Shown: in pieces, positions 35,699-36,646 of the stretch
Layout: each line of letters begins with the position of its first letter
Position numbering within the stretch: the first letter of the stretch is position 1
Sequence record: KX009778
DNA length: 64,000 nt
From: Escherichia phage UFV-AREG1
Strand: one strand, 5' to 3'
Translations under genes and position numbers: made by a program
Notes under the pieces: generated by a model
Database searches by the model: none
What the model was told of the DNA's origin: nothing
Seen by the model: the letters and a program-made list of their open reading frames with translations, nothing else

Positions 35699-35775
35699 TG
35701 GCCAGGGTGAAAGGATTCTAACCTTTAACCTGCGGTTTAGAGGACCGCTACTCTATACAATTGAGTTACACCCCG
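35699..35775 (-). tRNA. tRNA-Arg (anticodon UCU), CCA encoded
   Basis: Hand-folded cloverleaf: acceptor CGGGGTG/CACCCTG, D-stem ACTC/GAGT, anticodon stem GCGGT/ACCGC with loop CCUCUAA, T-arm AAAGG-TTAGAAT-CCTTT; position 33 is C, which is atypical. Confidence 0.6.
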
Positions 35776-35901
35776 TAATTAGTTCACAGCAATACCTACT
35801 CCAACAATCAAGATGTCTTCACACGAAATTAAGAGAAAAGTGATCAGTTCAACCCTTATAATCGCGTCAAGTAGATATTAATGTGACAACTGTCACAAGT
35901 T

Positions 35902-35976
35902 TGGCGGACATGCATGGATTCGAACCATGGACCAATTGATTAACAGTCAACTGCTCTACCACTGAGCTACACATCC
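35902..35976 (-). tRNA. tRNA-Asn (anticodon GUU), CCA encoded
   Basis: Hand-folded: GGATGTG acceptor, TAGCTCAGTGGTAGAGC D-arm, anticodon loop CUGUUAA, T-loop GGTTCGAATCC. Confidence 0.7.
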
Positions 35977-35980
35977 AAAT

Positions 35981-36067
35981 TGGTGGGGAGTGATGGAGTC
36001 GAACCACCCGAGTCGCAATGACAATGGATTTACAGTCCACACCGCTACCTCTACGGGATAACTCCCC
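35981..36067 (-). tRNA. tRNA-Tyr (anticodon GUA), long variable arm, CCA encoded
   Basis: Hand-folded: anticodon arm GTGGA-CUGUAAA-TCCAT, 87 nt with long variable arm typical of bacterial tRNA-Tyr. Confidence 0.65.
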
Positions 36068-36076
36068 AAATTAATT

Positions 36077-36153
36077 TGGTGACCCAGACCAGATTTGAAC
36101 TGGTAACCTTTCCCTTATGAGGGGACTGCTGCTAACCATTGAGCTACAGGGCC
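36077..36153 (-). tRNA. tRNA with CAU anticodon (Ile2 or Met), CCA encoded
   Basis: Hand-folded: acceptor GGCCCTG, anticodon loop CUCAUAA, T-arm ACCAG-TTCAAAT-CTGGT. Confidence 0.65.
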
Positions 36154-36154
36154 T

Positions 36155-36230
36155 TGGTGCTGATTGACGGAATCGAACCGCCGACATCCTCATTACAAGT
36201 GAGGTGCTCTACCTACTGAGCTAAATCAGC
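36155..36230 (-). tRNA. tRNA-Thr (anticodon UGU), CCA encoded
   Basis: Minus strand GCTGATTTAGCTCAGTAGGTAGAGCACCTCACTTGTAATGAGG...GGTTCGATTCC...CACCA; matches recalled T4 tRNA-Thr. Confidence 0.85.
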
Positions 36231-36232
36231 AA

Positions 36233-36319
36233 CGGAGGCGATAGGATTTGAACCTATGAGTCGCCGGAGCGACTGCCGGTTTTCAAGACCGGTGCATTAA
36301 ACCACTCTGCCACGCCTCC
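36233..36319 (-). tRNA. tRNA-Ser (anticodon UGA), type II, CCA not encoded
   Basis: Hand-folded: acceptor GGAGGCG, anticodon arm CCGGT-CUUGAAA-ACCGG, long variable arm, T-loop GGTTCAAATCC. Confidence 0.8.
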
Positions 36320-36321
36320 AG

Positions 36322-36395
36322 TCTCCATACAAGGATTTGAACCTTGGACCTCCTGATCCCAAATCAGGCGCTCTACCAAACTGAGCTACACGGAG
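36322..36395 (-). tRNA. tRNA-Pro (anticodon UGG), CCA not encoded
   Basis: Hand-folded: CTCCGTG acceptor, D-arm TAGCTCAGTTTGGTAGAGC, anticodon loop UUUGGGA, T-loop GGTTCAAATCC. Confidence 0.8.
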
Positions 36396-36405
36396 TAAAT
36401 TAAAT

Positions 36406-36479
36406 TGGAGCGGATAATGAGAATCGAACTCACATCATCAGATTGGAAGTCTGAGGTAATGCCATTATACGATATCCGC
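36406..36479 (-). tRNA. tRNA-Gly (anticodon UCC), CCA encoded
   Basis: Hand-folded: GCGGATA acceptor, anticodon arm TCAGA-CUUCCAA-TCTGA, T-loop GAGTTCGATTCTC. Confidence 0.8.
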
Positions 36480-36485
36480 AAACTT

Positions 36486-36572
36486 TGGTACGAGAAGTGG
36501 GACTCGAACCCACAAGGAAATCATTCCGCAGCATTTTAAGTGCTGTGCCTTTACCAATTTGACCATTCTCGC
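36486..36572 (-). tRNA. tRNA-Leu (anticodon UAA), type II, CCA encoded
   Basis: Hand-folded: GCGAGAA acceptor, anticodon arm CAGCA-CUUAAAA-TGCTG, long variable arm, T-loop GGGTTCGAGTCCC. Confidence 0.8.
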
Positions 36573-36573
36573 G

Positions 36574-36646
36574 CTGGGAATAAAGGACTCGAACCTTTGC
36601 ATCTAGCAGTCAAAGTGCTATGCCTTACCAACTTGGCTAATTCCCA
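36574..36646 (-). tRNA. tRNA-Gln (anticodon UUG), CCA not encoded
   Basis: Hand-folded: TGGGAAT/ATTCCCA acceptor, anticodon arm TAGCA-CUUUGAC-TGCTA, T-loop AAAGGTTCGAGTCCTTT; abuts tRNA-Leu with 1-nt spacer. Confidence 0.8.

Follow-up and report, generated by a model that had tools for sequence, protein, structure and literature searches.

A segB-less, extended T-even tRNA operon with ten tRNA genes in Escherichia phage UFV-AREG1

The tRNA operon of phage T4 (AF158101, 70.9–72.5 kb) reads Gln-Leu-Gly-Pro-Ser-Thr-Ile-segB-Arg-rnaD-rnaC, with trna.2–4 and internal-protein genes on its upstream side, and it holds eight tRNA genes, none of them for Tyr or Asn. The tRNA regions of the relatives T2L, RB1, and RB3 have been described as lacking segB (Brok-Volchanskaya et al. 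2008, PMC2330249). T2L carries genes for Met(CAU), Tyr, Asn, and Arg; T4 SegB preferentially cuts inside T2L's gene for tRNA-Asn, and in mixed infection it converts the T2L Met-Tyr-Asn-Arg block to the T4 version (PMC2330249). Here we analyze a stretch of 64,000 nucleotides from Escherichia phage UFV-AREG1 (record KX009778; hereafter the window, numbered from its first letter), which contains a tRNA cluster at 35699–36646. This cluster is a segB-less, extended "T2L-type" Tequatrovirus tRNA operon, consisting of T4's eight tRNAs plus Tyr and Asn between Ile and Arg; the likening to T2L is made from the published description. The ten-tRNA layout is already known as a commonly annotated variant of the T-even tRNA operon. 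The finding confirms the window as a Tequatrovirus with the common extended tRNA set and otherwise changes little; we document here that this set closely tracks the codon demand of the phage.

Across the whole window, ARAGORN predicts ten tRNA genes and no others, all on the minus strand and spanning exactly 35699–36646. Rfam model RF00005 recovers the same ten, each above the gathering threshold of 29 bits; nine score 53.9–75.4 bits, tRNA-Arg among them at 59.3, and tRNA-Tyr scores 30.2. Marginal Rfam scores are common for tRNAs with long variable arms, such as tRNA-Tyr. Both programs agree with all ten anticodons that an earlier, sequence-only reading of this DNA had obtained by hand-folding, and ARAGORN accepts its Tyr, Asn, and Arg models. 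The gene order is Gln UUG, Leu UAA, Gly UCC, Pro UGG, Ser UGA, Thr UGU, CAU, Tyr GUA, Asn GUU, and Arg UCU, with spacers of 0–10 nt save for a 126-nt gap ahead of tRNA-Arg. Seven genes encode the terminal CCA, which is absent from the 3' ends of Gln, Pro, and Ser. The genes are as follows.

36573–36646, minus strand: tRNA-Gln (UUG), without CCA (discriminator G, then C, then G1 of tRNA-Leu); identical to T4
36486–36572, minus strand: tRNA-Leu (UAA), CCA encoded; G1-U72, against G1-C72 in T4
36406–36479, minus strand: tRNA-Gly (UCC), CCA encoded
36321–36395, minus strand: tRNA-Pro (UGG), CCA not encoded
36232–36320, minus strand: tRNA-Ser (UGA), long variable arm; without the CCA that REP2 and wV7 encode
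36155–36230, minus strand: tRNA-Thr (UGU), CCA encoded; 76/76 identical to T4
36077–36153, minus strand: tRNA-Ile (CAU), T4/T6 allele; CCA encoded here and not in T4
35981–36067, minus strand: tRNA-Tyr (GUA), long variable arm; A73; 85/87 identical to T6 tRNA-Tyr
35902–35976, minus strand: tRNA-Asn (GUU), REP2/SHBML-50-1 allele (75/75); 63/75 against the wV7 allele
35699–35775, minus strand: tRNA-Arg (UCU), non-T4 allele; C33; U19-A56 elbow pair; T-loop TTAGAAT; CCA encoded

The cluster has the position, strand, and gene order of the T4 operon, lying on one strand between trna.2–4 with the internal-protein genes and rnaD-rnaC with e.8. The window aligns to T4 at 95% from 37216 to 36080, up to the end of tRNA-Ile, and again at 97.5% from 35155 to 34803, over rnaD and rnaC. 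Seven of the tRNAs are 98–100% identical to their T4 counterparts: there is no difference in Gln, Pro, Thr, and the CAU tRNA, a single base differs in each of Leu and Gly, and the body of Ser is identical, whereas tRNA-Arg is a different allele (49/77). In tRNA-Leu, position 72 (window 36490) forms G1-U72 here and G1-C72 in T4, wV7, and REP2. Compared with T4, the window lacks segB, has Tyr and Asn after Ile, and has a T5orf172-type open reading frame (ORF) between Arg and rnaD. No segB lies between Ile and Arg, and the ORF downstream of Arg matches SegB only at E = 0.59. The T4 record bears out the statement in the sequence-only reading that T4 has eight tRNAs without Tyr or Asn. Its remark that Ser, Pro, and Gln lack CCA as in T4 holds for those three genes; the agreement does not extend to Ile, whose CCA is missing in T4 and encoded in the window.

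The CAU tRNA had also been counted as an addition to the T4 set, which is incorrect: it is identical to T4 tRNA-Ile at 74/74 positions and to the T6 copy at 77/77. Because this gene is T4 tRNA-Ile, the extras relative to T4 are two tRNAs (Tyr and Asn), not three. Besides the anticodon and the T4 identity, it shows the hallmarks of a tRNA-Ile2 type, having in common with E. coli ileX the GGCCC acceptor stem and the CTCATAA loop, and carrying the acceptor pairs C4-G69 and C5-G68, which are determinants for TilS. In ileX-type tRNAs C34 is converted to lysidine, allowing AUA to be read, and by analogy the window CAU tRNA is presumed to be a lysidine-modified tRNA-Ile that reads AUA.

The closest relatives have the same architecture. 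Over 24 kb, the DNA surrounding the cluster shares ~96% identity with several Tequatrovirus genomes, and REP2 is annotated with the same ten tRNAs in the same order (96.3% identical over 1.4 kb). REP2, REP3, sutha, SHBML-50-1, and wV7 are annotated Tequatroviruses with segB-less clusters in which CAU-Tyr-Asn-Arg follow T4-like genes. In the window, Tyr(GUA) and Asn(GUU) stand directly after the CAU tRNA and are homologous to the genes of T-even relatives; the Tyr-Asn pair is 100% identical in SHBML-50-1, and no fewer than 466 phage records hold at least 80% of it. The experimentally characterized tRNA-Tyr of T6 is 85/87 identical with the same variable arm, both differences preserving pairing; T6 has segB directly after Tyr, and that stretch of T6 lacks Pro, Ser, and Asn. 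Alleles within the cluster are mosaic, with Ile, Asn, and Arg each matching different relatives. REP2 and wV7 carry another CAU allele (50/77 against the window). wV7, annotated with 11 tRNAs, further differs in its Asn (63/75), in a third Arg allele (51/77), and in an extra tRNA-His ahead of Arg. All eight copies of the SegB core motif GGTTCRANTCC in the window fall within the cluster (seven tRNAs and rnaC).

To describe codon demand, we set 97 non-overlapping ORFs of the window against 42 annotated genes of E. coli K-12. Enrichment in the phage is greatest for AGA (9.4x), ATA (5.6x), GGA (3.7x), TCA (3.7x), AAT (3.4x), and ACA (3.3x), followed at ranks 7–10 by ACT, AGG, TTA (2.9x), and TAT (2.6x). 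All ten are readable by tRNAs of the cluster (hypergeometric P = 7e-6, given 22 readable codons). Among amino acids, over-use relative to the host is highest for Tyr (1.80x), followed by Lys (1.69x) and Asn (1.62x). The classical T4 account of supply and demand thus fits Tyr and Asn as well, through amino-acid demand and not through a rare isoacceptor. Since the tRNAs match the codons and amino acids over-used by this AT-rich phage, we propose that their main role is to top up tRNA supply. Codon-usage adaptation, suggested by the sequence-only reading, is a reasonable interpretation that the counts support; it is the standard view and not a new inference.

A second benefit of such genes has been described in related phages. 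T6 tRNA-Tyr is detected by northern blot and tRNA sequencing (tRNA-seq), its over-expression rescues T6 from the Septu defence, and deletion of the T6 tRNA region sensitizes the phage (Chihara et al. 2026, PMC13096335). Septu cuts tRNA-Tyr in the variable loop, and T4, which has no tRNA-Tyr gene, cannot escape (PMC13096335). AriB, the nuclease of the PARIS defence, cuts tRNA-Lys, Thr(UGU), and Asn(GUU) at U36AAUC/N41 (the slash marking the cut), and T5 tRNAs rescue (PMC12409363). At this site, position 40 is G in the window Thr and C in that of the host; the window Asn has the AriB-preferred UAAUC/A and the wV7 Asn allele has UAAGC/G, so that the two Asn alleles might differ in PARIS sensitivity. 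Compensation for tRNA cleavage, also raised by the sequence-only reading, is therefore reasonable in light of the published work on the near-identical T6 tRNA-Tyr and on T5 tRNAs. The presence of tRNA-Tyr predicts partial resilience, compared with T4, to defences that cleave tRNA-Tyr (Septu, retron-Eco7). As the window has no segB, SegB-driven amplification of Tyr, as in T6, is predicted to be unavailable.

The tRNA-Arg gene is less ordinary. Its anticodon loop is CCTCTAA, so the C33 reported from the letters is indeed present, and its identity is 49/77 to the T4 gene and 51/77 to that of wV7. The family to which it belongs comprises ~248 phage records, including RB69, PP01, and VR20; genes at least 95% identical to the window's occur in 14 records only, and C33 is rare within the family, being present also in the Mosigvirus allele (AV110). 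Family members have the T-loop TTAGAAT and the D-loop AATTGTATA, which means that U19-A56 takes the place of the elbow pair G19-C56, otherwise universal. In a set of 18 Arg(UCU) sequences, 99.5% of cloverleaf cells are paired, and both partners change in 19/22 pairs; at 19-56, U-A is seen in 10/18 and G-C in 8/18, with no mispairing. Compensatory double changes (4-69, 10-25, and 49-65) separate the C33 alleles of Tequatrovirus, Gaprivervirus, and Mosigvirus, all of which keep A20, C35, and CCA. Maintenance of the stems and of the 19-56 pair by covariation argues for a working tRNA, not a decaying one. A56 also changes the SegB core motif to GGTTAGAATCC in tRNA-Arg, a loss that may or may not be coincidental. 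In the RB69 record, the anticodon stem of tRNA-Arg carries two additional G on its 5' strand relative to JS09, PP01, and other identical alleles, which may be a sequencing error in an old record or a real variant.

Downstream of tRNA-Arg lies the ORF that T4 lacks at this position.

35123–35677, minus strand: 184-aa ORF; the N-terminal domain is helical, the C-terminal one nuclease-like and of GIY-YIG type (MUG113/T5orf172); the stop codon falls within rnaD

Pfam matches are to MUG113 (37.9 bits, cut-off 22.3) and T5orf172 (27.9 bits, cut-off 20), and PHROG 5032 (phrog_5032) matches over the full length. The structural model is confident (pLDDT 91) and shows a GIY-YIG-like fold with conserved Y87, Y98, R109, and E152, preceded by 80 all-helical residues that have no match. 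A role as a defence gene found no support, PADLOC giving only weak domain-level matches. The family is small, with 12 clusters among 5.8 billion proteins and members in 47/50,697 phage records; within Tequatrovirus it occurs in nine records of seven phages. Scans of IMG/VR found six loci with the Arg pattern and five with the ORF profile, mostly in the same isolates, and enlarged the sampling very little. Homology to wV7-type genomes ends sharply at 35784 and restarts as sharply at 35145, and the 640-bp block between these borders (Arg and ORF) stands in place of the wV7 tRNA-His, tRNA-Arg, and ORF150c. This block is 99.4% identical in a few Tequatroviruses and 92–95% identical in the Gaprivervirus phages VR7, VR26, and ESCO10. 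An ATACCA just before rnaD was considered as the 3' remnant of a T4-type tRNA-Arg; this is unproven, and the encoded FEIP residues are conserved in ORF homologues elsewhere.

In every phage examined, ORF homologues adjoin tRNA-Arg(UCU): on its 3' side in six T4-like genera, and on its 5' side, overlapping, in three T5-like phages. In the latter (Demerecviridae RN29, phiR2-01, and My1) the overlap covers ~35 nt of the 5' part of the tRNA gene, and the Arg loop is GTTCTAA, with G32 as in the Arg genes of Winklervirus, Jiaodavirus, Moonvirus, and Gelderlandvirus. The ORF is scattered among close relatives at a single locus, with co-converted flanks, which is the pattern of a homing gene, and judged from its sequence it looks like a free-standing homing-endonuclease-type gene specialized on tRNA-Arg loci. 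In a sample of 18 alleles of the U19-A56 family, C33 is present in 5/5 followed by the T5orf172 ORF and in 0/13 without it. The five are one lineage, however, so linkage by descent explains the pattern equally well, and a second lineage lends no support, X20-type Arg having G32 both with the ORF (X20, KpV477, and Muldoon) and without it (CF1 and Melville). Three explanations of C33 can be put forward: self-immunity of the element, escape from a host nuclease that acts on tRNA-Arg, or a tolerated hitch-hiking change. The general idea of a tRNA variant that escapes a host tRNA nuclease is found in PMC10264068.

Taken together, we propose that the locus is an extended T-even operon that supplies tRNAs for phage-enriched codons, with defence buffering and a homing-driven mosaic of alleles, and we give this reading as a whole a probability of roughly 85%. 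By extension from T4 biology, the genes would be transcribed into polycistronic precursors that host RNase P and 3' exonucleases cut, Gln, Pro, and Ser would be completed by the host CCA-adding enzyme, and host TilS would turn C34 of the CAU tRNA into lysidine. The cluster tRNAs would then raise tRNA supply during late gene expression. Additional copies of near-identical or analogous phage tRNAs (tRNA-Tyr and, in T5, Asn and Thr) have been shown to buffer against defences that cut those tRNAs, and the tRNA-Tyr here may do likewise. Gene conversion driven by homing endonucleases would shape the tRNA complement of each phage; here the 640-bp block of the Arg allele and the GIY-YIG/T5orf172 gene replaces the His-Arg-ORF block of 11-tRNA relatives.

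Several points weigh against this proposal. The codon counts come from mechanically called ORFs and only 42 host genes, with early and late genes pooled. T4 mutants deleted for tRNAs grow nearly normally on laboratory hosts, and the supply benefit is therefore modest and host-dependent. C33 departs from the near-universal U33 and could reduce decoding efficiency. The UAAUC/A of the window Asn argues against a PARIS-resistant variant. Finally, Septu cleaves T6 tRNA-Tyr as well as the host's (PMC13096335), so protection is by dosage and not by resistance.

Some of the same evidence bears on the alternative that Tyr and Asn are kept mainly as counter-defence spares against host nucleases, codon match being secondary. 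The nucleases in question would be Septu and retron-Eco7 in the case of Tyr, PARIS AriB in that of Asn and Thr, and colicin-E5-like enzymes in that of tRNAs with GUN anticodons. This alternative is possible, and we hold it to be considerably less probable than the supply account. For both Tyr and Asn the host has one isoacceptor, encoded in several copies, so that these tRNAs are not rare like the other eight, and G40 of the window Thr, against C40 in the host, falls at the AriB cut site. The alternative also draws on the T6 tRNA-Tyr that counters Septu where T4 has no escape (PMC13096335), on the cleavage of Asn(GUU) and Thr(UGU) by AriB and the rescue by T5 tRNAs (PMC12409363), and on the fact that Tyr and Asn, plus His in wV7, make up three of the four colicin E5 targets (PMC1635277). 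Yet in their anticodon loops Tyr and Asn do not differ from the host tRNAs, the Asn anticodon stem offers AriB its preferred sequence, and the phage tRNA-Tyr is itself cut by Septu. Moreover, Tyr and Asn rank first and third among the over-used amino acids, so demand alone explains both. We rank codon supply first; defence buffering would come as a bonus, documented for Tyr through its T6 near-twin, and the two explanations are compatible.

The make-up of the cluster could instead be mostly a matter of selfish DNA, with tRNA genes as targets or cargo of homing endonucleases and with the Tyr, Asn, and Arg alleles left by gene-conversion history and not by selection on translation. The SegB-driven swap of the T2L block for the T4 version (PMC2330249), the confinement of all eight SegB core motifs to the cluster, the mosaic alleles, and the sharp borders of block 35145–35784 point this way. 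So do the GIY-YIG fold of the ORF, its adjacency to tRNA-Arg(UCU) in six T4-like genera and in T5-like phages, and the way that, in other phages, T5orf172 genes mark boundaries of exchange (Barth et al. 2023, PMC10448857). We nevertheless regard it as unlikely, because the tRNAs are under strong purifying selection, with compensatory changes preserving every stem and the 19-56 pair, because the fit to codon usage is tight, and because selfish spread accounts for the identity of alleles and not for the retention of tRNAs. Least probable by far is that the atypical Tyr or Arg is a pseudogene or a false prediction. A Tyr score just above threshold (30.2 against 29 bits) and a C33 that breaks the conserved U-turn nucleotide would be its grounds; against them, the Tyr gene is two positions from an experimentally detected T6 tRNA-Tyr with pairing kept at both, Arg scores 59.3 bits, and the C33 alleles show compensatory double changes and keep A20, C35, and CCA. 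The supply account, with its defensive and homing components, thus stays our preferred reading.

The remaining features of the operon lie upstream of tRNA-Gln, in the gap ahead of tRNA-Arg, and downstream of the ORF.

36744–37031, minus strand: homologue of T4 trna.2 (95 aa); a conserved neighbour on the upstream side of the cluster
35776–35901, minus strand: 126-nt spacer between tRNA-Asn and tRNA-Arg
35031–35148, minus strand: homologue of T4 rnaD (species 2 stable RNA), 97% column identity
34886–35024, minus strand: homologue of T4 rnaC (species 1 stable RNA), with a tRNA-like GGTTCGAATCC T-arm
34812–34835, minus strand: strong hairpin resembling an intrinsic terminator (10 bp, 7 GC) followed by a T-run, 3' of rnaC, closing the RNA operon

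The rnaD and rnaC homologues are 97% conserved with T4, wV7, and REP2; neither has a match in Rfam, even when 34700–35950 was searched permissively, and both are assigned by homology to T4. A scan for sigma-70 promoters and terminators found promoter-like sites at no more than the level of shuffled sequence, and the hairpin after rnaC as its only convincing terminator. Just 3' of tRNA-Asn, the 126-nt spacer holds a perfect palindrome, TGTGACA-GT-TGTCACA (35882–35897); the spacer folds slightly better than shuffled versions (z = -2.2). In wV7 it is conserved and precedes tRNA-His; the permissive Rfam search of 34700–35950 returned only the known tRNAs and thus no hidden or decayed tRNA-His in the spacer. 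Elsewhere in the neighbourhood, small minus-strand ORFs at 37663–37887, 37956–38264, 38325–38597, and 34288–34761 have a nearly common N-terminus (MKTYQEFI.., MKSYAQFL..), as is typically seen in T-even internal head proteins that carry a capsid-targeting sequence. This set of small ORFs is unlike that of T4.

The block formed by tRNA-Arg (C33, U19-A56) and the T5orf172-type ORF is the only lead of research value at this locus. One could imagine that tRNA-Arg(UCU) is cargo of an uncharacterized GIY-YIG/T5orf172 homing element (phrog_5032) that is associated with tRNA-Arg and mobile among T4-like genera, with relatives in T5-like phages. The odd features of the tRNA would then be adaptations to nucleases and not to the ribosome: C33 would shield the DNA of the element from its own endonuclease or let the tRNA escape a host anticodon nuclease, and U19-A56 would destroy the SegB core (GGTTAGAATCC) with the elbow intact. 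Taken jointly, these suppositions are speculative and unlikely to hold. The ORF resembles the T5orf172 homing genes of PMC10448857, a study which states that T4 has none, in its domain, in its presence or absence among relatives, and in its position at a homology breakpoint; unlike those genes it lacks CapR/zinc-finger DNA-binding repeats, and it is nuclease-like by sequence and model. If its nuclease does target tRNA-Arg genes, it would be a second, independent homing endonuclease specialized on tRNA loci, after SegB.

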